Assembly: GCA_001661245.1 (NCBI GenBank)
Contig: KV454014.1
Span: 822,954-886,953, forward strand
DNA: 64,000 nucleotides
Reading direction: 5' to 3'
Source of the DNA: Pachysolen tannophilus NRRL Y-2460
Lineage: Eukaryota
Part shown: positions 3,332 through 51,105 of the stretch, in pieces
Layout of the letters: each line of letters opens with the position of its first letter
How positions within the stretch are numbered: position 1 is the stretch's first letter
Program-made: the position numbers and the translations under genes
Notes under the pieces: model-generated
Databases searched by the model: none
Told to the model about the DNA's origin: nothing
The model's input: only the letters and a program-made list of their open reading frames with translations

Positions 3332-4171
3332 ATGAGTAGTACAGATCAATTTATTGCAAATGTCTTGCCAAATTTCAGATTGGATGGTAAGGTCACCGTT
3401 ATTACTGGTGGATCTGGTGGTTTGGCTACGGTTATTGCTCAGGCCTTATTGTTAGAAGGTTCTGAAATTGCACTTGTTGATATGAGTGAACAAAGAACTA
3501 AGGATGCAGCTAGTCTGTTGATTAAATGGGGAGAAATTCATATCAAAGGTTCTGAAGTACCAAAAGTAACTGCATGGACTTGTGATGTTTCCAAGTTTAC
3601 ATCTGTTGAAGAAACTTTTACTCTGGTTAATGAAGCTCATGGGAAATTGGCTGATAGATTAGTACATACTGCAGGTTATTGTGAAAATTTCCCTGCACAT
3701 GAATATCCAGCTGCAAATGCTGAGAGAATGACTCAAGTTAACTTGTTGGGTTCATTATATGTTTGTCAAGCTATTTCAAAACCTTTAATTGCCAATGGTA
3801 TTAAAGGTTGTTCTATAGTTTTAATTGGTTCAATGTCTGGTTCAATTGTTAACAATCCTCAACCACAAGTTGTTTATAACATGACCAAAGCAGGTGTTAT
3901 TCATTTAGCTAGATCATTAGCTACTGAATGGGCAGAATATGGTATAAGAGTCAATACCTTATCTCCAGGTTATATATTGACTCCATTGACTAAAAACGTT
4001 ATTAGTGGTTCTGCTACAATGAAACATGAATGGGAATCTAGAGTTCCAATGAAGAGATTAGCCGAACCAAATGAATTTGTTGGTTCAGTATTATATTTAC
4101 TTTCTAATACTGCAAGTTCATACACTACAGGTCACAATTTAGTTGCAGATGGTGGTTACGAATGTTGGTAA
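3332..4171 (+). CDS. ARD1: D-arabinitol 2-dehydrogenase (short-chain dehydrogenase)
   Basis: TGGSGGL Rossmann motif, YNMTK catalytic YxxxK, IGSMSG, GYCENFPA and C-terminal DGGYECW typical of yeast ARD1. Confidence 0.9.
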   Translation: MSSTDQFIANVLPNFRLDGKVTVITGGSGGLATVIAQALLLEGSEIALVDMSEQRTKDAASLLIKWGEIHIKGSEVPKVTAWTCDVSKFTSVEETFTLVNEAHGKLADRLVHTAGYCENFPAHEYPAANAERMTQVNLLGSLYVCQAISKPLIANGIKGCSIVLIGSMSGSIVNNPQPQVVYNMTKAGVIHLARSLATEWAEYGIRVNTLSPGYILTPLTKNVISGSATMKHEWESRVPMKRLAEPNEFVGSVLYLLSNTASSYTTGHNLVADGGYECW

Positions 4172-4260
4172 TTCTTTTTTTTTTTTATTTATTTTGTTTT
4201 TATGATCTGATTTATATAAAGTATATGTGATGTTTAATAGGATTTGAGTTTGCTTATATC

Positions 4261-4264
4261 AATA

Positions 4265-4303
<39 letters not shown>

Positions 4304-4320
4304 GTAATAATAGTAATGGT
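4261..4320. repeat. (AAT)n/(AGT) trinucleotide microsatellite
   Basis: aataatagtaataataataat... run. Confidence 0.85.
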
Positions 4321-4390
4321 CAAGGTAAAACTTAAGTGTAGAGAAAAGACAAGTCAGACGAAACCTAAAAATAAAGTATTTGGTTTACTT

Positions 4391-4463
4391 TGGACGAGTC
4401 AGGAATTGAACCCGAGACCTTTCACATGCTAAGCGAACGCGCTACCAACTACGCCACACGCCC
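4391..4463 (-). tRNA. tRNA-Ala(AGC), intronless
   Basis: Minus strand GGGCGTGTGGCGTAGTTGGTAGCGCGTTCGCTTAGCATGTGAAAGGTCTCGGGTTCAATTCCTGACTCGTCCA. 73 nt, G3:U70 Ala identity pair, anticodon loop TT-AGC-AT, GGTTCAA T-loop, T-run downstream. Confidence 0.97.
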
Positions 4464-5137
4464 CTTCCCAATTCGATCATTTTGATCAATATATACACGC
4501 CCGACTAAAGTTAAAAGTAAAACTTCTTCTTCTTATTCACTACTTATCTGATATCTAATATCTGTATGGCACATATATATATATATATATCTATAATAAG
4601 TACGATCAACGGAAATCCATTTTAGGTAAAGTTATCAAAAACATAGTCCGATGGGTATACCTCAAACTATATAATAAAAGAATTTTCAAATTATTATTGA
4701 TGACTGAAGAAGAGACCAAAAAAGGTTAAAAAACTAAAAAAAAAAAAATAACTTTTAACAGAATTTACTCATTTCTTCCCATCTATTCCTGAATGTAAAA
4801 AAAATAACAATGCCACGTTCTTCCGTTATATAGAATTGTACATTATAAAAGAAGCCTACAATTAAGATGCAGATAAAGACAATAATAATACTTCTATAAC
4901 GTACTATCGAGCTTCCTTGTTAAAAAAAAAAATAATTTTTCTCTTTTGGGTTCATATAATTCTTATTATTAATATTACTACTATTTTATAATTAAATTAA
5001 TGATCTATCTAATTTATAATCTTTAATCTTAGTCTTTAGCTATTAAACTACTATTTGTAAGTGAAAAAGAAAAAACGCCAAAAAAAAAAAAAAAAAAAAA
5101 TTTTTTAATTTTTTTTTTTTTTTTTTTTTTTTTAAAA

Positions 5138-5636
5138 NNNNNNNNNNNNNNNNNNNNNNNNNNNNNNNNNNNNNNNNNNNNNNNNNNNNNNNNNNNNNNN
5201 NNNNNNNNNNNNNNNNNNNNNNNNNNNNNNNNNNNNNNNNNNNNNNNNNNNNNNNNNNNNNNNNNNNNNNNNNNNNNNNNNNNNNNNNNNNNNNNNNNNN
5301 NNNNNNNNNNNNNNNNNNNNNNNNNNNNNNNNNNNNNNNNNNNNNNNNNNNNNNNNNNNNNNNNNNNNNNNNNNNNNNNNNNNNNNNNNNNNNNNNNNNN
5401 NNNNNNNNNNNNNNNNNNNNNNNNNNNNNNNNNNNNNNNNNNNNNNNNNNNNNNNNNNNNNNNNNNNNNNNNNNNNNNNNNNNNNNNNNNNNNNNNNNNN
5501 NNNNNNNNNNNNNNNNNNNNNNNNNNNNNNNNNNNNNNNNNNNNNNNNNNNNNNNNNNNNNNNNNNNNNNNNNNNNNNNNNNNNNNNNNNNNNNNNNNNN
5601 NNNNNNNNNNNNNNNNNNNNNNNNNNNNNNNNNNTN
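5138..5636. other. Assembly gap (N run)
   Basis: Ns flanked by homopolymers. Confidence 1.
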
Positions 5637-5896
5637 TTTTTTTTTTTTTAAACAGCTTTTTTGGATCAGTATTATATATATTGTATATTACGTTTTACGT
5701 TTTTTTTAAAATTTTTTTTTATTTTAATCGAATCAAGTGGCGAAATTATATAATATATCTATTCTGTATTCATATTAATTGATCCATCAACGGACTGAAT
5801 TATTTGTTTATAAGAGTCTTATTTTTTTTTCTTTCTTTAATTTAATTTAAATTTTTTCAAAGAAATAGGTGGTAGATAGAATAAATTATTATTATA

Positions 5897-7284
5897 ATGT
5901 CAGAACCAATTAAGAAGAAATTAGGTGAAATAGCTGCTGCTCCAACACCTCAAAATACACCTGCTTCTTTAAGTGGATCTTATATGAGCAAGTTGACGAA
6001 ACCGACTATTCCAAATACTATTAGTGAGGATAAAGAAGAATTACAGAAAAAATTATTATTAAATAATCCTGCTTTATTATCAATGATTGAAGGTAAATTA
6101 AATACTTTAGTTGGGGAAGATTCAGGTTATGTTGAAAAATTACCAAAAAAATTAAAAATAGGGTTTATAGTTTAAAATCTATTCAAAAAAGACAATTTGA
6201 TATTGAAGCTGAATTTCAACAAGAATTATTAGAATTAGAAAGAAAATATCATGGTAAATATAAACCATTATATATTAAAAGACATAATATTATTATTGGT
6301 AAAGAAGAACCTTCTGCTGAAGAAATCGAGGAAGGAGAACAATTAATAAGAGAAGAACGTGAAGAAGATGAAGATGAAGATGGACATGATGGGAAGGATG
6401 GTAAAATTGTTGAAGTCAATGAAGAAGATGAAGATTCTGAAGTTCAAAAACATGGTAAATCATTAGATGAAGATGATGAAGATGATGAAGAAGAAGAAGA
6501 AGTGGCCAAAGGTATTCCAGGATTCTGGTTAACTGCATTGGAAAACTTGGGTATTGTTGCTGAAACAATAACAGAAAAAGATGCTGAAGTTTTATCCAAA
6601 TTAACAGATATAAGGATGGAATATTTAGATGTTCCAGGTTTTAAATTAATTTTTGAATTTGATGAAAATAATTTTTTCACAAATAAAACTTTAACTAAAA
6701 CATATTATTATCAAAAAGAATTGGGATATTCTGGTGATTTCATTTATGATCATGCAGAAGGTTCACAAATTAATTGGACTTCAAATGATAATAATGTAAC
6801 TTTGATTGTAGAGAGAAGAAAACAAAGAAATAAGCATACAAAACAAGTTAGAACAATTGAAAAATTATCTCCAGTAGAATCTTTTTTCAATTTCTTTGAT
6901 CCACCAAAAGTTCCAAAATCATCAAAGGATAAAGAAAGAGATGAAGAAGATGAAGAAAATACACCAGATGTTGAAGGTGCAAATAAAGAAGAAGATGAAG
7001 ATGATGAACTCGATGAAGAATTAGAACAAAGATTAGAACTAGATTATCAAATTGGTGAAATCATTAAGGATAAATTAATTCCAAGGGCAATCGATTGGTT
7101 TACTGGTGAAGCTATTAAATACGAAATTCAAGAAGGAGACTACGACGATGAAGATGATGACTTTGGTGACGACAATGATGAAGACGATGAAGATGATGAA
7201 GACGATGACGGTGCAAGTGATGAATCTGGGGACGAAGAACTAAATAAAAGTAAAGCCCAACCCCCAGAATGTAAACAATCGTGA
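5897..7284 (+). CDS. NAP1: Nucleosome assembly protein Nap1, with an apparent -1 frameshift at A-run 6145-6151
   Basis: AAAPTPQNTPAS N-terminus. Adding one A restores LPKKIKNRVYSLKSIQKRQFDIE..., continuing into GIPGFWLTALEN, KLIPRAIDWFTG and the PPECKQS CaaX-like end. Confidence 0.92.
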
Positions 7285-8306
7285 TCATTGAAAAAAAATT
7301 ATTAAGTAATAGTAGTAGTCTTGTTGTGTTTTTTGGTTTTTTTTTTTCTTTTTTTTTCTTTTTCTCTTTTTCTTTCCTTTGCCTTTCTTATATTTTTATT
7401 TTTTGGTTTTGTCGATAGTAGTTAAATAGTTTGAAATCTACTAGTATATATAACGGCATCTATAATTTTGCTTTGAAAAAATTTTTATTTTTATTTTTTT
7501 TTTTATTCATTCACTTTTTAAAAATGATGTTAAAATTAAGTACCCTTCGTAATAACTGGTAATAACTTACCTTACGTTGCCTTACCTTGTCTAGTAATTG
7601 ATAATTGGTAATTATGGGCTTGTCGTATCTAATAATAAAATAAGTCAATCGTGCACAGTATATCAACACCCATTTTTATAAAGAAAAAAAGAAAGTTGCG
7701 CTTTAAATGCGGATCACACTTTGGTTTTGGTTTTCAATTGCGCTATTAATGCGGTTGCTCTCTATAAAGTGTGGTATTAATGCTAATGCCCTAAATTCTG
7801 TCAATTCTGTCAATCGAGATTTTACCTTTAATTCTGCCGTGTACACATTACCGTTTTAAGCGACTTGCTGCATTAAAGACTCGCGGAAAACGTTTCTCTT
7901 CTCACCTTTTGTTCTCTTGTATAATATTGGCTCAACTATAATAATATATAATACTGAACTAATAAAATTTTATTATTATTATTATTATTATTAAACAATT
8001 ATATTATTTCTTCTTTTCTTTCTAGTTTTCAATATTAAACTATTTGTTATAATTTTAAAAGAAAATTTACATTTCTTTTGTGATTTTAAATTTATATTTT
8101 GTCTTTTTTTTTTTTTTGAAATTTCTGTTTTATTTTCAAAAATTTACAATATCGGTAAGTATATTTTCTATTTTACTTTTAGTATTAATATCATTTATAA
8201 TTGATGATACAAAAAAAAAGAAATTTTTTTTTCTTTCTAAAGAATTTCATATTTGCAGTTAAACTAACGCGAAATTTTTATATTTGTTTAATTCAATAGT
8301 CACTGT

Positions 8307-10451
8307 ATGTCAAGGCCGTCTGGTTTAAATTCACAATATAGTAAAAATGTTAGGTTAAATACATTAAATGCTTCATGGAGCAAACTTTTGTTATTATTTT
8401 CATTATTACCAAAACTTGTTAGTTCTGTGCCGATTGCAGTTTTGCATTCGCTTCAAGATGATCAGCCAGTATCAATAGAGGATATGACTCCGATGAGGTT
8501 CTATACCTATCTTATTGCTTCAGCTTGTTTGGTTTGTATGGGTGGTATATTTGCAGGTTTAACTTTAGCGCTTATGGGTCAAGATGAAATTTATTTAAAA
8601 GTTATTGCAAATTCCGGCACAGTGAGAGAACGGTATTTTGCTAGAAAAGTATTAAATTTGGTTGGTAAAGGTAAACATTGGGTTTTGGTAACATTATTAT
8701 TATCAAATGTTATTACAAATGAAACATTACCTGTTGTATTAGATAGATGTCTTGGTGGTGGTCTTATTGCCGTTTTTTCATCAACAATTTCTATTGTCAT
8801 ATTTGGTGAAATTATTCCTCAGTCTGTCTGTGTTAGATATGGATTACAAATTGGTGCTTATTTTGCACCTTTTGTATTATTTTTAATGTATATGTTATAT
8901 CCAATTGCATATCCAATTGCATTATTATTAGATTATACGTTGGGTGAAAATCATGGAACTATGTATAAGAGAAGTGGATTGAAAACTTTGGTTACTTTAC
9001 ATAGAACTATGGGTGTTGAAAGATTAAATCAAGATGAAGTTACAATAATTAGTGCTGTTTTAGATTTAAAAGAAAAATCTGTGGGTTCTATTATGACTCC
9101 AATAGATAAAGTTTTCACAATGAGTGCTGATACAATATTAAATGAAACAACAGTTGATGAGATTTTTAATTCTGGATTCTCTAGAATTCCTATTCATTTA
9201 CCAAATGAACCAAAAAATTTTATTGGTATGTTATTAGTGCGAGTCTTGATCAGTTATGACCCTGAAGATGCTTTACCTGTAGCTTCTTTCCCATTAGCAA
9301 CATTACCTGAAACTTCAGAAGATACTTCATGTTTAAATATTTTGAACTATTTTCAAGAGGGAAAATCTCATATGGTTATTGTTAGTGAAACTCCTGGTAT
9401 GGCTACCGGTGCAAAAGGTGTCTTAACTTTAGAAGATGTTATTGAAGAATTAATTGGTGAAGAAATTGTTGATGAATCAGACGTATACATCGATTTAAAT
9501 AAAAGTATTAAGAGAAATGATCCAGGTCCATTGGCAAAAAGAAATTTTTCTGGTTATTTACATACTTTATATGGAAGTGCACATGCACATTCTCTGAAAC
9601 CAGCTTCTCATAGTTTCCCTGTTAACGTGGCGCCTATCTCCAGGATAAATCCATCTTTATCTGTACCTTCAAATGGCCAATGGAATGGCAATGGAGCTGC
9701 TGGTACTGGAAGTAGTAAGAACAATAATGTGGCGTACTATCATAAAACTGCTGTACCATCGAATCTTGCTGCAAAACCACTAGATACAAACAGAAGTTAT
9801 GTAACCATTAAAAAACAAAATGAAGATACAATGAGTAAGTTGAAACTGAATTCAAAGCTTTGGTCACCTGAAATTGAGATTGAAGGTGATGGTCATAAGG
9901 ATGATCATAAGGATGACCATAGGGATGGTGATAAGGATGAACATAAGGAAGCTAGCGATGATAATAAAAACAGTAAAGATGACAATAATCATCCTGTGGA
10001 TAGAAGTTTGAGCAAATCTCCTGGTTATGGCTCAACTACGAATGATAAAAAGTTTTTATTACCGAATGAAAGGGAACACGAAAGAGATATCACCACAATT
10101 AGCGTTGATGGTGAAGATGGTGAAGATGTTTACGACTTCCACCGTTTTGATAATAAGGACCAAAATCTGTACTTGATGAGTGACAGATCTAAACTTGTAG
10201 TGGATACACCCACTATAGGTCCAAGTTCATATAAATTGATAAATCATAACCACAAGACAATTATTTGCGCAATAGATGATGAAGATGAAACTGCCCATAA
10301 TGCACATGCAAAGGGCAACACAGTGAGGGACCGTTATGGAGATACAAGTGATGAAGATGGCTCAATTGAAGACCCTTTTGCAAATAACCTAACCTCAAAT
10401 TCTTCAAGATCAAGAAAAGATTCATTCATTGATTACATTAAAGGAAAATAG
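8307..10451 (+). CDS. MAM3: Mam3/CNNM-family membrane protein (DUF21 plus CBS pair)
   Basis: GGIFAGLTLALMGQD, HWVLVTLLLSNV, FGEIIPQSVC, GFSRIPI, TLEDVIEELIGEEIVDESD. Confidence 0.92.
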   Translation: MSRPSGLNSQYSKNVRLNTLNASWSKLLLLFSLLPKLVSSVPIAVLHSLQDDQPVSIEDMTPMRFYTYLIASACLVCMGGIFAGLTLALMGQDEIYLKVIANSGTVRERYFARKVLNLVGKGKHWVLVTLLLSNVITNETLPVVLDRCLGGGLIAVFSSTISIVIFGEIIPQSVCVRYGLQIGAYFAPFVLFLMYMLYPIAYPIALLLDYTLGENHGTMYKRSGLKTLVTLHRTMGVERLNQDEVTIISAVLDLKEKSVGSIMTPIDKVFTMSADTILNETTVDEIFNSGFSRIPIHLPNEPKNFIGMLLVRVLISYDPEDALPVASFPLATLPETSEDTSCLNILNYFQEGKSHMVIVSETPGMATGAKGVLTLEDVIEELIGEEIVDESDVYIDLNKSIKRNDPGPLAKRNFSGYLHTLYGSAHAHSLKPASHSFPVNVAPISRINPSLSVPSNGQWNGNGAAGTGSSKNNNVAYYHKTAVPSNLAAKPLDTNRSYVTIKKQNEDTMSKLKLNSKLWSPEIEIEGDGHKDDHKDDHRDGDKDEHKEASDDNKNSKDDNNHPVDRSLSKSPGYGSTTNDKKFLLPNEREHERDITTISVDGEDGEDVYDFHRFDNKDQNLYLMSDRSKLVVDTPTIGPSSYKLINHNHKTIICAIDDEDETAHNAHAKGNTVRDRYGDTSDEDGSIEDPFANNLTSNSSRSRKDSFIDYIKGK

Positions 10452-10613
10452 TTGACGATTTTATTCTATTTTAATTTATTTTAGTTTTTTTTTTCTTTTT
10501 TTTTTTTTACTCCGTAAATAATTACAAGAGTAATTACAACTATTACAACTTTTGTCCATATATTTATTAAAGAGATGACTTCTTCAGTTTATAATTACCA
10601 CCATCAGTTTATT

Positions 10614-10648
<35 letters not shown>

Positions 10649-10846
10649 AATTTGTACCTATCTGATATGATCAAATCCTACCGTCTCGTGCCGCCGCCTT
10701 TTTTCAACCGTCAAGTGCTGGCATTCCGCGCAAATCCACCCGCCTTTTTTTTCTTACATCCGGCCGGATTTAAAATTGTTTTTCCAGCAAAACTTTATAA
10801 CTTTGCAGTAACACAAGCTCATTGCTCATCATCATATATATTTTTG

Positions 10847-10880
<34 letters not shown>

Positions 10881-11176
10881 AGCTTAGTATTAATTAGCAA
10901 TTACAATCAATTGTACACGTAGTATTAAATTTATCTCAAATGGGAATAATTGAAATATAAATATTGTGATTGTTTAATAAACCGATATATTTAATGGTTA
11001 AGGACTATTGTTTCCCCTTTTTTTTTAATTTTATTTTATTTCAGGTGTTTTATTATTAATTATTAATTATTAATTAATTATTGCATTTAGAAAGTTGACG
11101 AAGCAATAAAACGGAAAATTGAATTTTTTCTTTTTTAATATTTTTTTTTTCTTTTTGCTGATTGATATATTTCATA

Positions 11177-13168
11177 ATGCTGCAATCACATCATCAAGCG
11201 CCAGTAGTATTTCTGCTGGCAAAGCAAGATTTGAATAATAATAATAGTAATAATGCTGTTCCAACTAATATCATAGTGACAGACCAGGATAATAAGGAAA
11301 TAAGCGCCGATAGAGAAAGTAGGAGCAACGTTAGTTCTGATCGTAAGCTGTTTTCAAGAAGTCCAAGCTCTTCTTCTTTAACTATATTGTCATCTAATGA
11401 GAATGATCATGGTAGTACTGTGGGTAAAATGCTTTTAGCAGGAAGGAAGTTAAATGGATCTTCTTCAAAATTGGAGACTTCGTTTCGTGCATCTATATTA
11501 TCTCCGAAATTATCTGCAACAAGTACAGCTAGTTCTCAAAAATCAGATTCAAGTCAATTATCAAAATTGAATTTTTTCAGAAAGGATAGCCATGGGAAAC
11601 ATAAAGAAAACAATCAGAGTAAAAATTCTGATAATTCAAATAATGTTAATGGTGAAAAACTTAAGTCAAATTCTTCTTCTAAATTGGAATTGAGAAGATT
11701 TTTCAAAAATTTTGTTAATCCACCTTCCAAATTATTAGAAGCTCAAGGAAATATAAATAAAAGTATTAAAAATAATATTAAAGATATTCTGGATCATCAG
11801 CATGATCATTATTTACATCGTTATAACATTCTTCACAACCATAATAAGGATAAACAGCTGAAGACCTCAAATTTGCATCAACAAAATGCTCAACAGAAAG
11901 AACTGCAGCAACACGAACTGCAACACGAACTGCAACTGAAAGTGCTGCAAGAGCATAATAAGATGTTTTTCGGAGCAGAAACTCCACAGGAATTAATCTC
12001 AAAATATGGAGTTCCTGGAAAGATTTTAGGTGAAGGTGCTGGAGGTTCGGTTGCAATTGTTGAAAGTTCTTCAGATGGAAAAATATATGCAGTTAAACAA
12101 TTTAGACCAAAATCAAGTAAAGAAACAGATTACGATTACACAAAAAAAGTCCAAAGTGAGTTTTGTGTTGGTTCAACTTTACATCATGAAAATATTATTG
12201 AAACTTATGATATGATAAAGGAAGGAGCAAACGTTTTAATTGTGATGGAATATTGCCCTTATGATTTTTTCACATTAGTGATGTCCGGTTTATTACACAA
12301 GCATGAAATTGCATGTTATATAAAACAGATAATAAATGGAGTAAACTACTTGCATTCAGTGGGGTTGGCCCACAGAGATTTAAAATTAGATAACTGCGTT
12401 GTTAATCCTGATGGAATTTTGAAATTAATAGATTTTGGATCTTCGGTTGTTTTCAAATATCCATACGAAGATACTATCATATATGCTAAAGGTGTTGTAG
12501 GTTCCGATCCATATTTGGCACCAGAAGTGTTTCAATCTGGTCACTATGATCCAAGACCAGCAGATATTTGGTCAATTGCTATAATTTTTTGTTGTATGAC
12601 GTTAAGGAGGTTCCCATGGAAGGTTCCTAAACTATCTGATGGATCTTTCAAGGCATTTTCAGTGCTACCTGATAACCTTAAGTTACAATCACTAAAAATT
12701 TCAGAAAAACTGCATAATCTGCCAATAGATAGCCAAGAAACGTTAAGTAGTGATGATCTTTTACATAATAGATCTTCTCCAACACCTCCACTTCCAGATC
12801 ATAAGTTAACATTAGAAGAGCAACATCAATTACAACTGAAGACAAATTATATTTCAAACTCAACAACAACAGCATTTGCTCCTAGGTCAAAAACCAGAGG
12901 CCCTTATAGGCTATTACGTTTATTACCTCATCTGTCAAGACCTTTGATAGGTGCTATGTTAGATTTAAATCCAAATAAAAGAATAACAATGGAAGGGATA
13001 TTGAATGATGAATGGTTTTCAAGTATCGACGTCTGTCATTATGATGCATCAAATCAACTAGTTAAGGGAAAATCGCATGAACATCATTTGGTAACTGAAC
13101 TGGAATTGGCAAAGATACAAGAGGAAAAAGAAAAACTGAAGAAAATAGAGGAGCAAATTGTTGGATAA
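11177..13168 (+). CDS. RTK1: Npr1/Hal5-family Ser/Thr kinase, Rtk1/Hrk1-like
   Basis: GEGAGGSV, EFCVGSTLHHENII, HRDLKLDNCVV, GSDPYLAPE, GPYRLLRLLPH. First ATG is at 11177 (track begins at TTG). Confidence 0.75.
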   Translation: MLQSHHQAPVVFLLAKQDLNNNNSNNAVPTNIIVTDQDNKEISADRESRSNVSSDRKLFSRSPSSSSLTILSSNENDHGSTVGKMLLAGRKLNGSSSKLETSFRASILSPKLSATSTASSQKSDSSQLSKLNFFRKDSHGKHKENNQSKNSDNSNNVNGEKLKSNSSSKLELRRFFKNFVNPPSKLLEAQGNINKSIKNNIKDILDHQHDHYLHRYNILHNHNKDKQLKTSNLHQQNAQQKELQQHELQHELQLKVLQEHNKMFFGAETPQELISKYGVPGKILGEGAGGSVAIVESSSDGKIYAVKQFRPKSSKETDYDYTKKVQSEFCVGSTLHHENIIETYDMIKEGANVLIVMEYCPYDFFTLVMSGLLHKHEIACYIKQIINGVNYLHSVGLAHRDLKLDNCVVNPDGILKLIDFGSSVVFKYPYEDTIIYAKGVVGSDPYLAPEVFQSGHYDPRPADIWSIAIIFCCMTLRRFPWKVPKLSDGSFKAFSVLPDNLKLQSLKISEKLHNLPIDSQETLSSDDLLHNRSSPTPPLPDHKLTLEEQHQLQLKTNYISNSTTTAFAPRSKTRGPYRLLRLLPHLSRPLIGAMLDLNPNKRITMEGILNDEWFSSIDVCHYDASNQLVKGKSHEHHLVTELELAKIQEEKEKLKKIEEQIVG

Positions 13169-13638
13169 AAAGAATAATTATGTTACAGTTTGAATTTAGA
13201 TCGTTGTTGTTGGCAATTAAACTACTTTGTTTAAGTGTTTTCTATTATATTTTTTTGTTTTAGACTATTGAATTCTTCTTTGTATTGACCATCTTAATCT
13301 TGTTCTTAAAATGGTTCTTGAGCTTCCCTGTTATTTTCATTATTCATTAAATTCTTTATGTCCCTTACCGACTTGATTATTATTATATTTTACATTAAAT
13401 TAGTGCTAATAAAGACACTCTAAATCTTATTTATTTATTAAATTAATTTACAAATGATAAGCTTGAGCTAGTGCTTTCTGTAAGAACAAGTTAATATTAT
13501 ACTGAATCGAGCCTTAAATACGGTAAACTAGTCCATAAAAAAAAATAAAAATATAGACACAAATAATCATGCTCAATTAAAGCTAAAGATTCTATTCATG
13601 AAAAACAAAAAATCACATAACAAGTTTCACCTTCATCA

Positions 13639-30453: not shown

Positions 30454-30487
<34 letters not shown>

Positions 30488-37260: not shown

Positions 37261-37266
37261 AAAACT

Positions 37267-37306
<40 letters not shown>

Positions 37307-37371
37307 TTCTTAATTTGAGAAATTCATTGGAATCAATTTGATTTAATTTAATTTACTAGACAGGAAAAGAT

Positions 37372-40792: not shown

Positions 40793-41218
40793 TTAACTAA
40801 CCTCAAACCTCGTAGAAGTATTAATTAAACTAACTATCTTTTAAACCATCATCATCATCAACATCATTATGTCTGAAAAATAGCCCCAATAAACAGTACA
40901 TGAAAGAGGTCGTGAGATTCTGTTTTCATAAGAAGCTCAAGACAATTGCAAAAGACGATGAAGAAGATGGTGTTGGTTACAACCAGTGGTGTGTATCATT
41001 ATTGACTGTGAATGGATAAGCTGAGTAAGACTTGTTGTTCTCTGTTTTTCTCTTTTTTGGCTTTTTTTCATTACGGTTAAGAGGTTTAAGGTTATAAATG
41101 TGTGAGACATTACAGTTTGTAGAATAATAGTAACATAACATTACAGTATTAAAATTAAAAAGTAAATTTGTAAAAATCAGTAAATTTCTGGGAGCTGGTT
41201 TCCTGTGAAATTAAAAGA

Positions 41219-42547
41219 TTAGTTTAAGGATAAGCCTAAAGCTTCACGCTGTGACTTTGAATTTGGATCAAATATTGGTAACTCAGCCAAAGACGTGACT
41301 CTGGTACCATGTCTTGGTTCATCATTTTCATAATCCCAAACAGCACAGTGTTGAGAGACTCTGTTGTCCCAAAGAGCAGAAGTTCCTAATCCAGATTTTG
41401 ATTTCCAATTGAATCTAACTTGGATATCCAAATTTTTCTCATATACGTCAAATAAATATTCCAAGATCAATTTTGATTCTGCTGGTTCTAAACCAACAAT
41501 CGATTTGGTCATTTGACGGTTTACATATAAAGATTTCCAACCTGTAACAGGATGAGTTCTAACAAGTGGGTGAACTCTTTCAATTGATTTTTTACCACCA
41601 AAAGGATCATCACGATCCAAATATTGATGAATTGAAACATAAACTGCTTCTTTGCCATCAAGGAATTGTTGTAATGCAGAAGATAATTTATCATATGCAG
41701 CATAACCAGATGACCATAATGTATCTCCTCCAACTTCTGGGATAGTATCATTGTGTAAATGAGTTATACCAGCTGGTTGAAATTCGTGAGATAGATCCGA
41801 GTGCCAAACACCTGTAGCTGTTCTTGATTGTTTAAATCTATACTTGACACCATTTTGAATCATATAATCTGGCCAAATAACAGTAGTACCAGCTAAACCA
41901 GGAACTCTAGGTTGTTGAGCATGAACTTCAACATTACCAAAATAATGACCCAATTCAACTTGTCTTTGAGGTGATAAATCTTGATCTCTAAAGAAAACAA
42001 CAATTCTTTCAGCAATTAATAATGCTAACTCATCCAATTGCTTTTCATTTAAAGACAGTAATTGAACACCAACCAATTCAGTTCCAAGATGTTTGCTTAA
42101 ATGTTTGACTTCTTTGACAGCACTAAATAATGCCTTCTTCTCAGGGTCGGCAAATTTACCTCTATCAACAAATGGAACTTCTGAATCTCTAATCTTGGTA
42201 GCATCTTGAACATAAATTGGAATATCAGAATCATTTGGAATTTCTGGATAACCTCTTGATATATCTATACCATATTTTTCCATTCTCTTCTTGGCCAGAG
42301 CGGGAAGTGGTACACGGTTATCCTTAAGTTTTTGCACCTTCAAAGAATGAAGTTGATTTACTACATCATCAATAGAAGGTTCTGGAGCAACCAACTTAAC
42401 AGGTTGATTTTTAGTCTTAGTTTCAATCGAGTGAATTGTAACCATAATCCATATTTCTTGAATCAATGAAAAATTCCTGGAATGAAAAAAATTCCTAGAC
42501 AAAAACTGAAAAGAAGAGAGAAAACTCTCAGCTATTAATACCACCAT
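41219..42547 (-). CDS. JLP1: Fe(II)/2-oxoglutarate-dependent sulfonate dioxygenase (TauD/Jlp1 family). Start is 42547 or 42445
   Basis: ERIVVFFRDQ, WHSDLSHE (HxD), GGDTLWSSGY, HPLVRTHPVTGWK, WDNRVSQH. Confidence 0.85.
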   Translation of the reverse strand: MVVLIAESFLSSFQFLSRNFFHSRNFSLIQEIWIMVTIHSIETKTKNQPVKLVAPEPSIDDVVNQLHSLKVQKLKDNRVPLPALAKKRMEKYGIDISRGYPEIPNDSDIPIYVQDATKIRDSEVPFVDRGKFADPEKKALFSAVKEVKHLSKHLGTELVGVQLLSLNEKQLDELALLIAERIVVFFRDQDLSPQRQVELGHYFGNVEVHAQQPRVPGLAGTTVIWPDYMIQNGVKYRFKQSRTATGVWHSDLSHEFQPAGITHLHNDTIPEVGGDTLWSSGYAAYDKLSSALQQFLDGKEAVYVSIHQYLDRDDPFGGKKSIERVHPLVRTHPVTGWKSLYVNRQMTKSIVGLEPAESKLILEYLFDVYEKNLDIQVRFNWKSKSGLGTSALWDNRVSQHCAVWDYENDEPRHGTRVTSLAELPIFDPNSKSQREALGLSLN

Positions 42548-42621
42548 CCATCGGCAAAAGCTAATGTCGTTTTTTTAATGAATTAAGGTAGAATTGAACT
42601 TAATTAAAGATAATAAAAAAA

Positions 42622-42904
42622 GCCACACTTTTTAAAGAGTTTTGAAAAAAAAGGCCATTCAAAAGTACTAAGAAATGAATATTTTATAATGATTTATAAA
42701 ACACCTAGTTGTCGTCGTTGTCTTTGTTGTCCATCACCTCAAAAACTTATTTCAAGTGTACCCTTATATCTCTGATCTCTGAAATCATCTAACTATCTTA
42801 ATATAGTATTCAATATACTCCAGTGATTGCATTCATTCTGATTGTAGTTTTCTCTTTTTTTTTTTATTTTTTGAAGTTTAGTATAATTGTAAGATCCACA
42901 GTTT
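42622..42904 (-). promoter_or_regulatory. Met31/Met32-type sites upstream of JLP1
   Basis: AAACTGTGG at 42896-42904 and AAAGTGTGGC at 42622-42631, both on the minus strand. Confidence 0.6.
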
Positions 42905-43024
42905 TTTTTTTTTCAACCCACCTTAAAAGAGGTGTTTTTGGGTCGATAGTTTCTTAGGTGAGATGAGCTTCAAGATCAGATCAATTTACCGAGACTACAA
43001 AGCAAATGTGGAAACTCTTTTATT

Positions 43025-44314
43025 TCAAAATTCTAAACTATTGAACTCACTAGCAATCTCATTCACGATATTTTTCTTAACTCCAAGAGGATTACTTTTA
43101 TCGTTGTCAGTATTGTTCAATTTCTTTTTCAAGAAATTGGCCATGTTTGAGATAATCATCTGTGATATTCCATCGTTTTGCCACCACTTTAATAGTGAAT
43201 CATAAATATTGAATCTAAAATTGGTTAGAATAGAGGAAATAATTAGGATAACCAATACAAGTATTATCAAGAGTTTTGAATAATTTTCAAAAATGGATTG
43301 AATACTTATAAACATGTCCTTTGCCATTCTTTGTAACTTTGTCTTGATTCTATAATGATCTATTGGTGTTATCTCTTTCAGACTTGAATTTAGATCAAAC
43401 CTATCTATTTTCTGATCCAATGAATTAAGTTTTTTCTTGTATGATTTTTTCAATAATTCAATTTCTTTCAGATTGTAAATTTTCAAGTCTGAAATATGAT
43501 TATTCAACTCCACCAACACTTTTTCTAAATCTTTAATTCTTTTATCCTTTTCTATTAATTCCTGTTTTAAATGAGTAATTTGTTCTTCATCTTGTTCCGT
43601 TGAATTTTTATTAAAATTTTTTTTCAATGCTGACTTTAATACTTTACCGTTTGGAGTCTTAACAACTCCATTAGTAGTTGCAGAACTATCTAAAGGAGGT
43701 TTAAAAATATTTTTAGTAATTGTACAATCCTCTTCTTCTTCAGTGGTTGAATTATTAGAAACGGGGGTTTTAATTTTTGAAGTTAAATTTGTAAAATCTA
43801 ATTTTCCAGCAACATCACTATTATCAAGCTTGTTATCGTTATAAATAGGTATCACTTTAGGAGTTTTTTTATGAGGCGAATATATAATTTGACAATTATC
43901 ATCTGTTTCTTCAACGTTTCCCAGTTCATTCATTGTAGTATTAGTAGTAGTAGTAGTAGTAGTAGTAGTAATAGCTGGGGTTGTAGGTGTCGTCGGTATA
44001 TTGTTCTCATTTTCCTTATTTTTCAATTCATCTTTCCTTATCTCAAATTCACTAACAAGGTCAACAATATGTTTATGAATCAACTTAAAATGGAAATAAT
44101 CCACATCTTTCTTGTAAATTTTAAAATTTGGCTTCAACTTGGTAAATTGTTTAAAAGCATCTAATTTTTTATCATCCTCATCATCTAATAAACTGTACAA
44201 TTTTTGATAAAATTCATAAATTTGAACTCCCTTTATAAAACCTTCATCTCCATTTTTATCCAAGCTGTCCCAAGCTTTCCCAATCAACTCAATAGAGATA
44301 TCACTAGCTGACAT
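43025..44314 (-). CDS. Coiled-coil protein with C-terminal TM helix, probably an Mps2-like spindle-pole-body/nuclear-envelope protein
   Basis: N-terminal AWDSLD..GFIKG recalls the Mps2 N-terminus. Central TP/SP-rich linker, coiled coil, TM LLIILVLVILIISSIL. Confidence 0.5.
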   Translation of the reverse strand: MSASDISIELIGKAWDSLDKNGDEGFIKGVQIYEFYQKLYSLLDDEDDKKLDAFKQFTKLKPNFKIYKKDVDYFHFKLIHKHIVDLVSEFEIRKDELKNKENENNIPTTPTTPAITTTTTTTTTNTTMNELGNVEETDDNCQIIYSPHKKTPKVIPIYNDNKLDNSDVAGKLDFTNLTSKIKTPVSNNSTTEEEEDCTITKNIFKPPLDSSATTNGVVKTPNGKVLKSALKKNFNKNSTEQDEEQITHLKQELIEKDKRIKDLEKVLVELNNHISDLKIYNLKEIELLKKSYKKKLNSLDQKIDRFDLNSSLKEITPIDHYRIKTKLQRMAKDMFISIQSIFENYSKLLIILVLVILIISSILTNFRFNIYDSLLKWWQNDGISQMIISNMANFLKKKLNNTDNDKSNPLGVKKNIVNEIASEFNSLEF

Positions 44315-44491
44315 TATTCAATTTATTATTCAAATTAAATATTTAATAGCATTTTATTAACCAAGTAGTGTGTGCATTTCAATTTGTATATTCAATATCT
44401 ATAATATATAAATTATATGATGATGAGCAAACTTGATTGATCTTCCTTTATCTAGTGAAATTGGATTGATGTGCTATAATTGAAGTGGATA

Positions 44492-44857
44492 ATGGGCTGG
44501 TTTGGTAATAGCGAGGCCGGTGATGGTTCATTAAGTATAAAAACTGATAATGACAATGTCAATAATAATGGCAATAATTCATCATCAGCTACAAATGTAT
44601 CCAACAAAGGTGATATAAATGAAGTTTCAGAATTTATTAATCAAGAGCCTAGAGCTGTTTATATAATTGATGGAGACAGAGATGCTCCTCATAGTATCAT
44701 TTGCAGAGATAAAGCTTCTGGAGGAGGCCAAACATGTATCAAATTACAATACAATTGTATTGAATTATTTAAAGCAATGCAAAAATTCAATTATTTCTGT
44801 GCATTACCGTCTAATAAAGTCGATGCTACTTATTTTGAGTGTAGAAAGATCTCATAG
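44492..44857 (+). CDS. Small uncharacterised Cys-containing protein (121 aa)
   Basis: ATG at 44492 in aATGg context. Low-complexity N-terminal half, globular-looking C-terminal half with 5 Cys. Confidence 0.7.
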   Translation: MGWFGNSEAGDGSLSIKTDNDNVNNNGNNSSSATNVSNKGDINEVSEFINQEPRAVYIIDGDRDAPHSIICRDKASGGGQTCIKLQYNCIELFKAMQKFNYFCALPSNKVDATYFECRKIS

Positions 44858-45205
44858 ACAAAGAAATTAAGTGTGATGGGCTTCTTAATTAGTTTAAAAG
44901 TCTTTTCAATTATACCAACCAATTTTTTTTTTTTTTTACTTTTATTTTATTTAATTGCTAAAAAACAATATATATATTTTATAGGCTACAAAAAAAATTC
45001 AATTAGGGGATTCTAATGAGCATAGTAGGAATGAAATATAGAAACTAGTTTATTCTCAAGTATTTTCACTTGTGCTTGAAATCAATTGGTTTTTATTTAA
45101 AGAAAAAAATAGATAAAACTTTTCAATATGCAAAGGAAATTTTCTTTAATTTCCCAATTTTTCTAATTTACTTTTTAAATTTTGAACACTTTATGGGTAT
45201 AATAA

Positions 45206-45943
45206 ATGGTTCAAGAGGTGATCATATTCATATTGACATTACCGATATTGTATTTGATAATGTCCCGGTTATTAAGCAGTATAATTTCTTCAAGAAGTAA
45301 TGGTCTTTCAAGTAAGATAATAACTCAAAATGATAAACAACCTTTTTTATTAATATGTTCTATAGGAAATCCTGAACAACATTATAAAGGAACAAGACAT
45401 TCAGTAGGACATTTAATTTTAAAAGAAATTATTAATAGACAAAATTTTAATCAAATATTGAAAATTGGAAATAAAAATTATTATAGTAATGAAAATAGGC
45501 CAAATTTATTATTTTATGAATCAACAAGTTTAATGAACATTAGTGGGAAAAATGTTAAAGATGCATTTTATAATATCTTAAATAATTCAAAATTTATTAA
45601 TTATAATCCAATCTTGATTGTTTTACATGATGAGTTAGATTTAAAATTAGGTAAAATCAAAGTAAAGAAACAAATGTCTTCTCATAGAGGTCATAATGGG
45701 TTAAAATCTATTAATAATAATATTGGAGGTGGATTTAATTCTATATCAATTGGTATAGATCGACCACAATCAAGAAATAGTAATGAAGTTGCAAATTATG
45801 TATTATCCAAGATTCCAAATAACGAATTAAAAATTTTAACCGATGAAGTTGTTCCAAAAGTTGAAACCATAATTGAAGAAATGTTGAATGGGAAATATAT
45901 TTATGAAGTAAATGAAACTAATACAAGGAAACATAAAAATTAG
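45206..45943 (+). CDS. PTH1: Mitochondrial peptidyl-tRNA hydrolase. Start is 45206 or 45260
   Basis: SIGNPE..YKGTRHSVG, MNISG, VLHDELDL, SHRGHNGLKSI, IGIDRP. Confidence 0.88.
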   Translation: MVQEVIIFILTLPILYLIMSRLLSSIISSRSNGLSSKIITQNDKQPFLLICSIGNPEQHYKGTRHSVGHLILKEIINRQNFNQILKIGNKNYYSNENRPNLLFYESTSLMNISGKNVKDAFYNILNNSKFINYNPILIVLHDELDLKLGKIKVKKQMSSHRGHNGLKSINNNIGGGFNSISIGIDRPQSRNSNEVANYVLSKIPNNELKILTDEVVPKVETIIEEMLNGKYIYEVNETNTRKHKN

Positions 45944-46498
45944 ATTATATATATATATATATATTTATGACCCATAAAGTCATTATAATTAGTACCCTTA
46001 TTTCTAAAAGTAGTTACTACGATTTATAACTCAGTTTCAATAGAACCGAACCTATTTTACTCTCTTCAAGACAATTTTTTACTCCATCCAAGAATACTTG
46101 AACAGACCCTTACTTACTTACTTACTTAATTACTTACTTATTTTCCTTTTAAACCGTTTACCATCTTACCATCTCCTTACATTTCCTCCGCCTTCTCCTT
46201 CCATTTCTCTACCACTTTTACCTGGAGATCATCTTGCGGCTCTTTCTTTTACACAATCCCGCCGAAAGCCACACAAAAATGCAGGAAGAAAAGAAAAAAA
46301 AAAGAAAGAAAAAAAAAACAGGCGACGACATCCAGTTCACCAGCAGATCCACTTTAATACCGGTAATAGTTAATCAATAATACCTGAAAAATAATATATA
46401 AAAGTTTTGGTATTAAAGAAGAAGATATTTCCAAGATTGATGTTATAGTTTTGGTTTTTTTTTCAAAGAACAAGGAACTGAAATAGAAAGAGTGAAGG

Positions 46499-48007
46499 AT
46501 GTCGACTTTTAAAAAAGTGCAGCCTGTGGCTAAGAATATCTTAGAATTGATTGGTAATACACCAATGGTTAGGTTGAATAAGATTCCAAAACAGTTTAAT
46601 TTGAAGCCAAAGATTTTTGCTAAAGTGGAATTATTTAATGCTGGAGGTTCTATAAAAGATCGTATTGCATTAAGAATGGTAGAAGAAGCAGAAAGAAAGA
46701 AATTAATTTTTCCTGGTAAATCCACTTTAATTGAGCCAACTTCTGGTAATACAGGTATAGGATTAGCTTTAGTTGGTGCTGTGAAAAATTATAGAACTAT
46801 TATAACTTTACCAGAAAAAATGTCCAATGAAAAAGTTGCAGTATTAAAAGCATTAGGTGCTGAAATTATAAGAACTCCAACTGAAGCTGCTTGGGATTCA
46901 CCAGAATCTCATATTGGTGTTGCCAAAAAATTAGAAAAAGAAATTCCAAATTCTATTATTTTAGATCAATATGGTAATGTTGATAATCCTTTAGCTCATT
47001 ATTATGGTACAGGTGCAGAGATTTGGGAACAAACAGAAGGTAAAGTTAAAGTTGTTGTTGCTGGTGCAGGTACAGGTGGTACGATAACAGGTATTTCTAA
47101 ATTTTTAAAAGAGAAAAATCCTAATATTAAAATTATAGGTGCAGATCCTATTGGTTCTATCTTGGCTCAACCTGAATCATTAAATAAAACTGATATAACT
47201 CAATATAAAGTTGAAGGTATTGGTTATGATTTTATTCCTGATGTTTTAGATAGAAAATATGTTGATAAATGGTACAAGACAGATGATAAAGATAGTTTTC
47301 AGCTTGCAAGGAAATTGATTAGAGATGAAGGTATTTTAGTTGGAGGATCTTCTGGAAGTGCTTTAAGTGCAACAATAAAAGCAATTAAAGAAATGGAAAA
47401 TTTAACAGAAGATGATATTGTTGTATTTATTTGTCCAGATGCAATTAGATCATATTTAACAAAATTTGCAGATGATGATTGGATGAAATTAAATAATTTC
47501 TTACCAATTGTAAAAGATTCAAAAGATAAAAAATTGAATTTTAATGAACTTTTAAAAGATTATTCAATTAAAGATTTAAAATTAAAACCTGTTATATCTG
47601 TTGATCAAAATTCATCTATTGCTTCTACTATTAAAATACTTCAAGATAATGGATTTGATCAATTACCAGTCTTGGAAGAATCATCCAAAAAATTATTAGG
47701 TATTGTAACTTTATCTCATATTTTAAAATCTTTACTGGAAAATCAACATGTTAAAACTGTTAAAGAAGTTTTCTTTGATTTTAAAAATTTAGAAGATTTT
47801 GAAAAATCAAAAGATATTAACGTTGAATCAAAAAATAAGACAAGACCAATACAAGTTATCAATGAATCAACAAGTTTAGATAAGTTGAACAAATATTTTG
47901 AAAATAATTCATGTGCAATTGTAACAGATACAAATAATAAACCTTTACATATAGTTACTAAAGTTGATTTGGTTGCATTTTTGGCCTCAAAAGGTGAATT
48001 TAACTAA
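46499..48007 (+). CDS. CYS4: Cystathionine beta-synthase
   Basis: IGNTPMVRL, NAGGSIKDR (PLP Lys), EPTSGNTGIG, GAGTGGT, C-terminal CBS pair (NGFDQLPV, IVTKVDL). Confidence 0.96.
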   Translation: MSTFKKVQPVAKNILELIGNTPMVRLNKIPKQFNLKPKIFAKVELFNAGGSIKDRIALRMVEEAERKKLIFPGKSTLIEPTSGNTGIGLALVGAVKNYRTIITLPEKMSNEKVAVLKALGAEIIRTPTEAAWDSPESHIGVAKKLEKEIPNSIILDQYGNVDNPLAHYYGTGAEIWEQTEGKVKVVVAGAGTGGTITGISKFLKEKNPNIKIIGADPIGSILAQPESLNKTDITQYKVEGIGYDFIPDVLDRKYVDKWYKTDDKDSFQLARKLIRDEGILVGGSSGSALSATIKAIKEMENLTEDDIVVFICPDAIRSYLTKFADDDWMKLNNFLPIVKDSKDKKLNFNELLKDYSIKDLKLKPVISVDQNSSIASTIKILQDNGFDQLPVLEESSKKLLGIVTLSHILKSLLENQHVKTVKEVFFDFKNLEDFEKSKDINVESKNKTRPIQVINESTSLDKLNKYFENNSCAIVTDTNNKPLHIVTKVDLVAFLASKGEFN

Positions 48008-48307
48008 TCTATAAGATTATCAAAATTTTTGAAATTATTTTTCTTTAATTGCTTTTTAGCTAAAACTCATCAAGCTCACTCGAGTCTTTGAGTCTTTCAG
48101 TAATATTATATAAACTCTTTTGATAAAAGGGGGAACTCGTCAATTAGTTCAAACCCGTCTTGTAGTTAATTAAAAGCCTTATCTATTTTGCCCGCGAAAA
48201 GAATGAGTCAATTTAAAAGTGAATTATTCGATTCATGATAAGATATAAGATATAAGATAAAAGAGAGTAAGTAGTTAAAAGCAAAGAAAAAAAAGAATTG
48301 GATTAAC

Positions 48308-48922
48308 ATGACAAAGGAGAGTGTTGAAAAGGCAATTGTCACCAAATCAGAAACTTTCCATTTGGACAATGAAGAGAAAACTTTAGTTACAATGTATCTG
48401 GTAAACAATGTCACTGAAGTTCCTGAAGAATTGGTGGAAACAATGGTTAGAATTTTTAATAATGAAATTGAAAAAGGTGATACTTATCCTCATGATAAGA
48501 TAATGACTATACAAGAATTTAAAGATTATTGGTTTCAATATTTTACCGGAATCATGCTAGTAGGTAAAGAAACTTTACTTCTTTCCAACAATAGAAATTT
48601 TGATAAAGAATTTTTGGGTACTTTCTATATTAAACCAAATTACATTGGAAGATGCTCTCATAACTGTAATGCTGGATTCATTGTCAACCCTGAAGCAAGA
48701 GGCAAAAAAATCGGTACTGCTATGGGTAAACAATATCTTAAATGGGCTCCTCAACTAGGTTATACCTATTCAGTATTTAACTTAGTTTTTGAAACTAACA
48801 TTGCAAGCTGGAAAATTTGGGATTCTTTAGGTTTTCAAAGAATCGGAAGAGTGAAAAATGCTGCTGTCTTGAAAGGCCACGAAAAGAAGGTCGACGCCAT
48901 CGTCTTTGGCAAAGACTTGTAA
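48308..48922 (+). CDS. MPR1: Mpr1-like GNAT N-acetyltransferase (L-azetidine-2-carboxylate acetyltransferase family)
   Basis: GDTYPH, GTFYIKPNY.GRCSHNCNAGF, YSVFNLVFETN.ASWKIWD, VDAIVFGKDL end. Stand-alone domain. Confidence 0.72.
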   Translation: MTKESVEKAIVTKSETFHLDNEEKTLVTMYLVNNVTEVPEELVETMVRIFNNEIEKGDTYPHDKIMTIQEFKDYWFQYFTGIMLVGKETLLLSNNRNFDKEFLGTFYIKPNYIGRCSHNCNAGFIVNPEARGKKIGTAMGKQYLKWAPQLGYTYSVFNLVFETNIASWKIWDSLGFQRIGRVKNAAVLKGHEKKVDAIVFGKDL

Positions 48923-49263
48923 CCCAAAACCTCTTCTTCTTCGTCGTTATTCTCGTCGTTGTCGTCGTTGCCGTTGTCTTCGACCCCTTTTGTTTAGTAC
49001 CGCATTTCCTAATTCGGTATTTGTCGTGTAGTTGATGAAGTAGAAAAATACAAACAATAAAAAAAATTAAAAGTAATTATAATCTCTATATATAAACAAG
49101 GTTGTAAGATATTTATATATATATATATATATATATTGATAGATATATATGGATCTGGATATATCTGTATTGATATATCATTGTTGTGGCAAGATTGTGT
49201 TTGTCCTTTTTTTTTTTTAAAAACAAAAAAAAAATTTATTGATATAGTTTGGCTGGGAATATA

Positions 49264-51105
49264 ATGCCGGACTTTGATGATGTTACGCAACCTCCTCAGT
49301 TTAGGCAGCAGCTTGAATATCCAATATCTATAATTGAAAGGTATACAGTTTTATTAAAGGATGGAGAAACTACGGCCACGATTTATCCTATACATTCAGC
49401 TGAAGAGCTTCCACCAGGGTTGTTGGCATTTTTGTGTGATGAGTTTAATATGGAGGTAGAAAGGGGAGATACTTTTCCCTTTTTCGATACTCTTCATATA
49501 GAGACTTTCCAAAATTATTGGTTTGGTTCATTTGCAGCTGTAATGGTTTTAGGAGATTCTCAAACTTTGGATAGGCCAAAGCAATGGGAAAAAGAATGTT
49601 TGGGGACTTTTTATATTAAACCAAATTATCCAGGACGTTGTTCTCATATATGTACTGCTGGTTTCTTGGTTAATGCAGGTATTAGAGGTAAAGGTATTGG
49701 TAGAACTTTAGCAGAATGTTATCTTGAATGGGCTCCAAGATTAGGTTATACATATTCTGTTTTTAATTTAGTATTTGAAACAAATGACGCGTCTAGGAGA
49801 ATTTGGGAGTCTTTAAATTTCAAAAAAATTGGTAAAATTAAAGCAGCAGGTATTTTAAAAGGTCATGACAATGCTGTTGATGCAATAATATATGGAAGAG
49901 AATTAGTTCAAAATCCAAATTCAACTACTGGATCATATAGATTTGATAAAATTAAATTTTATCTTGAATCTGGTAAATATCCAGCAATGGCTGATAGACA
50001 AGAAAAATCAAGATTAAGATCTTCTGCATCTCATTATAGATTAGAAAATGGTAAATTGATGTTAAAAGGTAGAGAAGTTATTTCAGACCCACTGAGACAA
50101 ATGCAAATTTGTACAGATGTTCATATGACAAACCATGGAGGTATCAATAAGACTACATCTTTAATCACTGAAAAATATCATTGGACACGTATAAAAGATA
50201 CAGTTGCCGCCGTGATACGTAATTGTCCAGAATGTAGAGATCCAAGAGGATTGTTATTGAAAAGAAGTTCGTTGCCTGCAATTAAAAAGGCACAGCTGCA
50301 ACTGCAGCACCAGATACAACTGTTGCAACAGCATCAGCAACAACTTCTGGCAAAGCAACTGCAGCATGCCCAGCAGAAACATCTCCAGCACCATTATCAC
50401 TCTTCATCAGCATTGTCTCCAGAAAACTCATCTGGTGCAATATTAGTCGGTGGAAATAATTCTGCATCTACTTCAAATAAATATTCAGATCATAATTCGT
50501 CGGCAAATAGCATTCACAACAGACATTTGCAACAGCTGCACAATAATGAACACCACAATCATGACACTTCTTCCAAAGGAGATACAAATTCTCCCACTGA
50601 TGTTGTTACATTAGTTGGATCAGATCAATTACAACAAATTCCCTCTCATACTTCAAATCATATGGATTCAGGATTGCTCACTGGGGATTTCGATCCGGAT
50701 GATCCATCCGGCATCATCGCTGCCGTAGAAGCGGCTCAAAGGTCTCTGCAACAGCTGCAGAGTCACCAGCAACACCGGCACCACGATCATCATCAGCAGC
50801 TGCAACATCATCAGCAACACGTAGTACTGCAATCGCAACTGCAAAACCTTCATCATCAACGCGATAATAATGGGAACTCTCATCTTTCCAGCGACAATAG
50901 ACATAGTAATCATAATCATGATCAATATTCGCATGACTACAATGAGGCTCATGACCAACACGAAGATTTTCACTACCAACATACAGATAGTGAAAACGAG
51001 GAAGACGTTGATGAGGATGATGATGATGATCAAATCGATCCTGAGGTTATTTCAAGAGCTTTAATACAAGCAAATGAAGGAGATGGTGGTAATTCTATGT
51101 TGTGA
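49264..51105 (+). CDS. SPT10: Spt10 histone acetyltransferase / histone-gene activator (GNAT plus H2C2 zinc domain plus Q/H-rich tail)
   Basis: GNAT core followed by YLESGKYP and H-x3-H...C-x2-C (HMTNHGGINKT...CPEC, 50122-50235). ATG at 49264. Confidence 0.88.
   Translation: MPDFDDVTQPPQFRQQLEYPISIIERYTVLLKDGETTATIYPIHSAEELPPGLLAFLCDEFNMEVERGDTFPFFDTLHIETFQNYWFGSFAAVMVLGDSQTLDRPKQWEKECLGTFYIKPNYPGRCSHICTAGFLVNAGIRGKGIGRTLAECYLEWAPRLGYTYSVFNLVFETNDASRRIWESLNFKKIGKIKAAGILKGHDNAVDAIIYGRELVQNPNSTTGSYRFDKIKFYLESGKYPAMADRQEKSRLRSSASHYRLENGKLMLKGREVISDPLRQMQICTDVHMTNHGGINKTTSLITEKYHWTRIKDTVAAVIRNCPECRDPRGLLLKRSSLPAIKKAQLQLQHQIQLLQQHQQQLLAKQLQHAQQKHLQHHYHSSSALSPENSSGAILVGGNNSASTSNKYSDHNSSANSIHNRHLQQLHNNEHHNHDTSSKGDTNSPTDVVTLVGSDQLQQIPSHTSNHMDSGLLTGDFDPDDPSGIIAAVEAAQRSLQQLQSHQQHRHHDHHQQLQHHQQHVVLQSQLQNLHHQRDNNGNSHLSSDNRHSNHNHDQYSHDYNEAHDQHEDFHYQHTDSENEEDVDEDDDDDQIDPEVISRALIQANEGDGGNSML

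Follow-up and report, generated by a model that had tools for sequence, protein, structure and literature searches.

CTG codons and genes of the window

We analysed a stretch of 64,000 nucleotides of DNA, hereafter the window, for the meaning of the codon CUG in its genes. The window carries 28 open reading frames (ORFs) of at least 150 amino acids (aa), of which 21 (75%) contain CTG in frame, for a total of 94 CTG among 14,046 codons (Table 1). The window is, with very little room for doubt, nuclear DNA of the yeast Pachysolen tannophilus, identical at the protein level to strain NRRL Y-2460, in which CUG is read as alanine (Ala) according to NCBI table 26. This reading is already known, having been reported in 2016 for the same strain by Muhlhausen et al. 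(PMC4937558) and taken up as NCBI table 26. The proportion of CTG-bearing ORFs in the window agrees with this report, where 16,824 CUG positions affect 80% of the genes.

The same reading had been reached by the original prediction, made from the letters of the window without database searches, on the basis of six CTG codons cited in five genes. All six are indeed in frame, at the positions and in the contexts that it gave, and the gene names that it attached to them are reasonable in view of the homologs and structures matched (Table 1). For one of these genes we keep the name SPT10 as a presumptive label; its basis in the sequence is only the domain pair GNAT plus zf-H2C2. The statement that the CTG codons sit inside conserved motifs went too far: most of them occupy variable positions.

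Table 1. Features of the window, with the CTG codons cited in the text
Feature	Position	Strand	Remarks
Short-chain dehydrogenase (SDR) ORF, "ARD1" of the original prediction	3332..4171	+	Pfam adh_short_C2; homologs named D-arabinitol 2-dehydrogenase
SDR CTG codons	3515-3517 (aa62); 3623-3625 (aa98, TFT[CTG]VNE)	+	in frame; aa98 cited by the original prediction
tRNA-Ala(AGC)	4391-4463	-	single tRNA found by ARAGORN
NAP-like ORF	6616-7284	+	Pfam profile positions 125-266 of 266
Protein kinase ORF	11177..13168	+	Pfam Pkinase; 17 CTG codons
Kinase CTG codon	12932-12934 (aa586, LLPH[CTG]SRP)	+	in frame; cited by the original prediction
Isocitrate/isopropylmalate dehydrogenase ORF	31158-31640	+	Pfam profile positions 191-348 of 348
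FYV10/GID9-like ORF	32558..34936	+	PDB matches "Protein FYV10" and MAEA; 8 CTG codons
FYV10 CTG codon	33704-33706 (aa383, WNKL[CTG]NFF)	+	in frame; cited by the original prediction
BMT5-like ORF	35107-36126		9 CTG codons
PP2C phosphatase ORF (PTC2-like)	37372..38790	+	Pfam PP2C
PP2C CTG codons	37825-37827 (aa152, ESGCA[CTG]TT); 37909-37911 (aa180, DGS[CTG]KALSYDHKP)	+	in frame; both cited by the original prediction
TatD-like nuclease ORF	39493..40587	-	7 CTG codons: aa43, 74, 161, 247, 278, 347, 355
GNAT and H2C2 zinc-finger ORF (SPT10-like)	49264..51105	+	Pfam Acetyltransf_1, zf-H2C2; 12 CTG codons
SPT10-like CTG codon	50092-50094 (aa277, SDP[CTG]RQ)	+	in frame; cited by the original prediction
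All in-frame CTG codons (n = 94)	1..63998	.	spread over 21 of the 28 ORFs (150 aa or longer)
Runs of N, 1237 bases in total	5138-5634; 5636; 31678-31961; 36806-37260		all between ORFs

Identity with the public proteins of Pachysolen tannophilus

The best NCBI match of the TatD-like ORF is PACTADRAFT_34032 of P. tannophilus NRRL Y-2460, with 357 of 364 residues identical in an ungapped alignment; the two differ at seven positions, precisely those of the CTG codons of the ORF, where the public protein reads Ala throughout. The same holds for the public copy of the PP2C phosphatase (P0121), which departs from the table 11 translation of the ORF at the two CTG positions alone and has Ala in both; the public copy of the SDR (P0241) also has Ala at both of its CTG codons and otherwise follows the pattern of the PP2C copy. 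As an observation apart, the public TatD protein extends at its N-terminus 22 residues beyond the longest ATG-started reading of this gene in the window, which implies an upstream exon and hence an intron.

The comparison was widened by an exact look-up in the public protein collection, for which 14 ORFs were queried as table 26 translations. Six of these, together holding 18 CTG codons, are present letter for letter: FYV10, CNNM, CDC14-SIN, a CBS enzyme and two proteins without Pfam family. When the same six ORFs are translated by table 1, where CUG is leucine (Leu), or by table 12, where it is serine (Ser), none of them is found in the collection. Public P. tannophilus proteins thus have Ala at every CTG compared, and the proteins of the window equal those of strain NRRL Y-2460 at every other residue compared, so that both the reading of CUG and the membership of the Pachysolen clade proposed by the original prediction held. 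The TatD identity and the six exact ORFs place the window in P. tannophilus, and thereby in the Ala clade—Pachysolen, Nakazawaea and Peterozyma—as delimited by Krassowski et al. 2018 (PMC5951914). Judged from these protein sequences, the public annotation already applies CUG=Ala, and the window is P. tannophilus at the protein level.

Residues opposite CTG in homologous proteins

Four deep alignments were examined for the residues that homologs carry opposite CTG: TatD (the query and 119 homologs, the public self-copy P0001 being left out), PP2C (119 homologs, without the self-copy P0121), SDR (119 homologs in the counts, from which the aligned self-copy P0241 is excluded) and the kinase (149 of the 150 representatives listed, P0511 being dropped). 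Of the 28 CTG codons in these four genes, 14 fall in columns that are at least 50% occupied. Homologs from yeasts that have reassigned CUG may be mistranslated in the databases; this could produce spurious Leu in a column, it could not create Ala.

The most telling columns are those of PP2C. At aa152, 118 of the 119 homologs have Ala, one has Ser and none has Leu, and the PP2Cs of the PDB also have Ala at the matching position; at aa180 we count 87 Ala, 19 Val, 10 Cys, 2 Ser and 1 Phe, again with no Leu among the 119. Both CTG codons of the gene thus fall on Ala-majority columns, which number 24 among the 450 columns of PP2C. At aa98 of the SDR Ala is the plurality (57 of 119 homologs, followed by 13 Gln, 13 Ser, 13 Glu, 12 Lys and 2 Leu). 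At these three sites Ala leads among the homologs, in agreement with the original prediction; at the kinase site aa586, for which it had also given Ala, the 149 representatives have mostly glutamate (Glu, 74), with 28 Ala, 12 Asp and 9 Ser, Leu being outside the eight commonest residues. Elsewhere the columns are less conserved or favour other residues: aa62 of the SDR has 65 Glu, 41 Asp and 4 Ala among the 119 homologs, and the seven CTG columns of TatD are all variable or gapped, with mostly Glu, Asp or Lys. At the conserved columns, Ala rather than Leu or Ser is found opposite CTG, a pattern that is the one expected of CUG-Ala yeasts.

For a quantitative view we used a score similar to that of Codetta, the sum of the column log-odds over the 14 alignable CTG columns. 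The sums are +7.4 for Ala, +2.6 for Glu, -4.0 for Ser and -14.0 for Leu, so that the tabulation of residues opposite CTG ranks Ala above Ser and Ser above Leu. As a control, the same scoring recovers the standard meaning for 55 of the 57 other codons, and the two misses each rest on a single column. In 5000 random sets of 14 columns the observed Ala score is not once attained; the Ala signal at CTG is therefore beyond chance, and it lies inside the range given by genuine Ala-codon columns.

These counts bear directly on the standard reading, in which CUG is Leu and the Ala-like sites would be lineage-specific Leu substitutions. Leucine is after all the default meaning of CUG, and some Leu is found in a few columns, namely at aa243 (22 of 98 residues) and aa654 (26 of 119) of the kinase. 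Against it, Leu is never the plurality in the 14 CTG columns, whereas for the other Leu codons it is the plurality in 93 of 136 columns; in 3000 draws from the columns of genuine Leu codons the Leu score never falls as low as at CTG; and conserved Leu or hydrophobic columns, as expected from table 1, were not found at the CTG codons of the 14 columns. The table 1 translations of six ORFs are also missing from the public collection. This standard reading is contradicted by the data and extremely improbable.

Serine deserves the same attention, since CUG-Ser yeasts exist according to PMC5951914: CUG would then be read as in the Candida and Debaryomyces clade (table 12) or as in that of Ascoidea and Saccharomycopsis. 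In favour of Ser, it is the plurality in two of the 14 columns (aa2 and aa228 of the kinase), and it would also fit the CTG sites at large, which are mostly hydrophilic and variable. Nevertheless Ser scores well below Ala and is nearly absent from both PP2C columns; 3000 draws from the columns of genuine Ser codons never give a Ser score as low as that of CTG; and among the 14 columns no conserved Ser column, as table 12 would require, was found. The public collection contains the six ORFs in their table 26 form and not in their table 12 form. Finally, liquid chromatography coupled to tandem mass spectrometry (LC-MS/MS) of strain NRRL Y-2460 gave Ala at 97.2% of the CUG positions that had full fragment-ion support, 907 in number, as reported in PMC4937558. 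A serine reading of CUG in the window is thus extremely improbable, and Ala is retained.

Points against the alanine reading, and variable CTG positions

Several observations weigh against CUG=Ala or weaken the conservation argument, in which few columns carry the Ala signal. Ala is the plurality in only three of the 14 CTG columns, whereas Glu is in six. If PP2C is withdrawn from the sum, Glu (+6.5) surpasses Ala (+2.6), with Ser (-1.4) and Leu (-10.1) still below Ala. In addition, the Ala score of the CTG columns is lower than that of 99.4% of the draws from ordinary Ala-codon columns. In pairwise alignments with PDB proteins, which reach eight further CTG sites, Ala was never seen and no column proved conserved: aa383 of FYV10 faces Asn in Fyv10 of S. 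cerevisiae and Ile in human MAEA; aa98 of the SDR faces Gln and Ser in paralogs; in URA2, aa1697 faces Glu and Gln, and aa1790 a gap and Phe; in a histidine phosphatase, aa42 faces Lys and Leu, and aa74 Arg and Pro; aa100 of the GH15 protein faces a gap; and aa164 of the TauD protein faces Glu, Thr, Ser and Thr. As far as pairwise comparison can tell, these sites speak against Leu and are uninformative on Ala.

The look-up of public proteins has its own weak side, in that eight of the 14 ORFs have no exact table 26 match in the collection: the kinase and SPT10-like ORFs, which have none under tables 26, 1 or 12, and the BMT5, PRS, NIPA, GH15, TauD and URA2 ORFs, which were queried under table 26 only. 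Public gene models with other starts or with introns probably explain these failures. More fundamentally, public translations reflect how annotators read the DNA and not how the cell reads it. Also, no tRNA with the anticodon CAG was found by ARAGORN within the window. Altogether, comparison of sequences alone would tell that CUG is not Leu and is probably Ala; the certainty of the Ala reading comes from the identity of the organism combined with the literature.

The low Ala score of the CTG columns relative to ordinary Ala draws means that CUG codons stand at unusually variable positions, and this low conservation agrees with a published view in which CUG codons disappeared and arose anew at a later time. 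Per column, the mean Ala log-odds in the four alignments is about 0.5 for CTG, compared with about 1.4-1.5 for GCA, GCT and GCC.

Compared with ordinary Ala codons, CTG tends to keep away from conserved positions, as might also be expected of an unreliable codon. CUG could then be ambiguous through competing tRNAs, as reported for Ascoidea asiatica, Ala being only its major reading; a minor second decoding would be compatible with the comparison of homologs. On the other hand two CTG codons lie on strongly conserved Ala columns of PP2C, and in the LC-MS/MS analysis of the same strain (PMC4937558) residues other than Ala were no commoner at CUG than non-standard readings at AUG. We therefore give such an ambiguity next to no credence, and consider Ala as the meaning of CUG in the window.

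tRNAs and the proposed route of reassignment

The tRNA-Ala(AGC), the only tRNA of the window, is an ordinary one, not a decoder of CUG; its 5' end reads G1-G2-G3-C4, and it has the G3:U70 pair and A73. A tRNA(CAG) of this genome would be expected to share these alanine identity elements. The tRNA(CAG) of strain NRRL Y-2460 is described in PMC4937558 as clustering with alanine tRNAs, with A73 and G3:U70 and without a long variable arm.

In the scheme drawn from the literature, the ancestral tRNA-Leu(CAG) would have been lost and the anticodon CAG gained by a tRNA-Ala. As alanyl-tRNA synthetase reads G3:U70 and A73, and not the anticodon, this tRNA(CAG) would be charged with Ala, and Ala would be inserted at CUG.

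Comparison with known reassignments of CUG

With the nuclear code of P. tannophilus (table 26, PMC4937558) the window shares the organism, at the protein level, and the reassignment; we found no difference between them. The CUG-Ser1 clade (Candida, Debaryomyces; table 12) is alike in that the same codon has been reassigned through a tRNA with the anticodon CAG, as taken from the literature. It differs by the amino acid, which is Ser, whereas the window scores Ser far below Ala and its public proteins are not those that table 12 yields. The CUG-Ser2 clade (Ascoidea, Saccharomycopsis) represents, according to the literature, another independent reassignment of CUG in yeasts; it is a different clade with a different amino acid, and with a stochastic Ser/Leu reading in A. 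asiatica, whereas the CTG columns of the window are without Leu or Ser signal.

The window thus brings no new knowledge on the genetic code, the reassignment of this sense codon via a tRNA-Ala(CAG) having been published in 2016 for the same strain. Its consequence is for annotation only: translated by the standard or the bacterial table, 21 of the 28 ORFs show Leu at a total of 94 positions that are Ala in the protein, and the ORFs of the window therefore need table 26. It also illustrates that a known change of code can be recovered from motif context alone by a reader without tools.

CTG codons beside glutamine codons

In the ORFs of the window CTG codons are often flanked by codons for glutamine (Gln): 25 of 94, vs 41 of 673 for the GCN codons (Fisher p about 1.5e-8). 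Twenty of these 25 belong to three genes with Gln-rich tracts, the kinase (8 of its 17 CTG codons), the SPT10-like gene (10 of 12) and the BMT5-like gene (2 of 9); in the SPT10-like ORF, the 11 CTG codons other than the one at aa277 all lie within Gln/His-rich tracts. Once the three genes are set aside, 5 of 56 CTG codons remain Gln-flanked vs 34 of 607 GCN codons (p = 0.36), and we rejected Gln adjacency as a general rule for CTG. The enrichment may simply reflect the Gln-rich tracts of these three genes.

From the lower conservation of their columns, compared with those of ordinary Ala codons, CUG-Ala codons give the impression of a recent origin. One could imagine that they are indeed young and that new ones came largely from CAG-to-CUG changes in tolerant tracts of low complexity; from the sequences at hand we regard this origin as rather unlikely. 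The text of PMC4937558 has the word "glutamine" only in its reference list and "low complexity" nowhere, and when the literature was searched for polyglutamine-type tracts in Pachysolen, no paper mentioning Pachysolen was among the 8 listed of 518 matches.

Other features of the window

The ORFs of the window are densely packed with few introns, and their Pfam matches are ordinary fungal protein families, among which PP2C phosphatase, protein kinases, short-chain dehydrogenase, a CTLH/FYV10 protein, a GNAT and H2C2 zinc-finger protein, a URA2-type fusion of carbamoyl-phosphate synthase and aspartate transcarbamoylase (CPSase/ATCase) and a RICTOR homolog. Two ORFs, NAP-like and isocitrate/isopropylmalate dehydrogenase, match only the C-terminal part of their Pfam profiles (Table 1); their N-terminal parts must lie in upstream exons or other frames, introns being the likely cause. 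The DNA is AT-rich, with a G+C content of 23-37% across the window in 4-kb steps, and the runs of N, placed outside the ORFs, are either assembly gaps or masked stretches.

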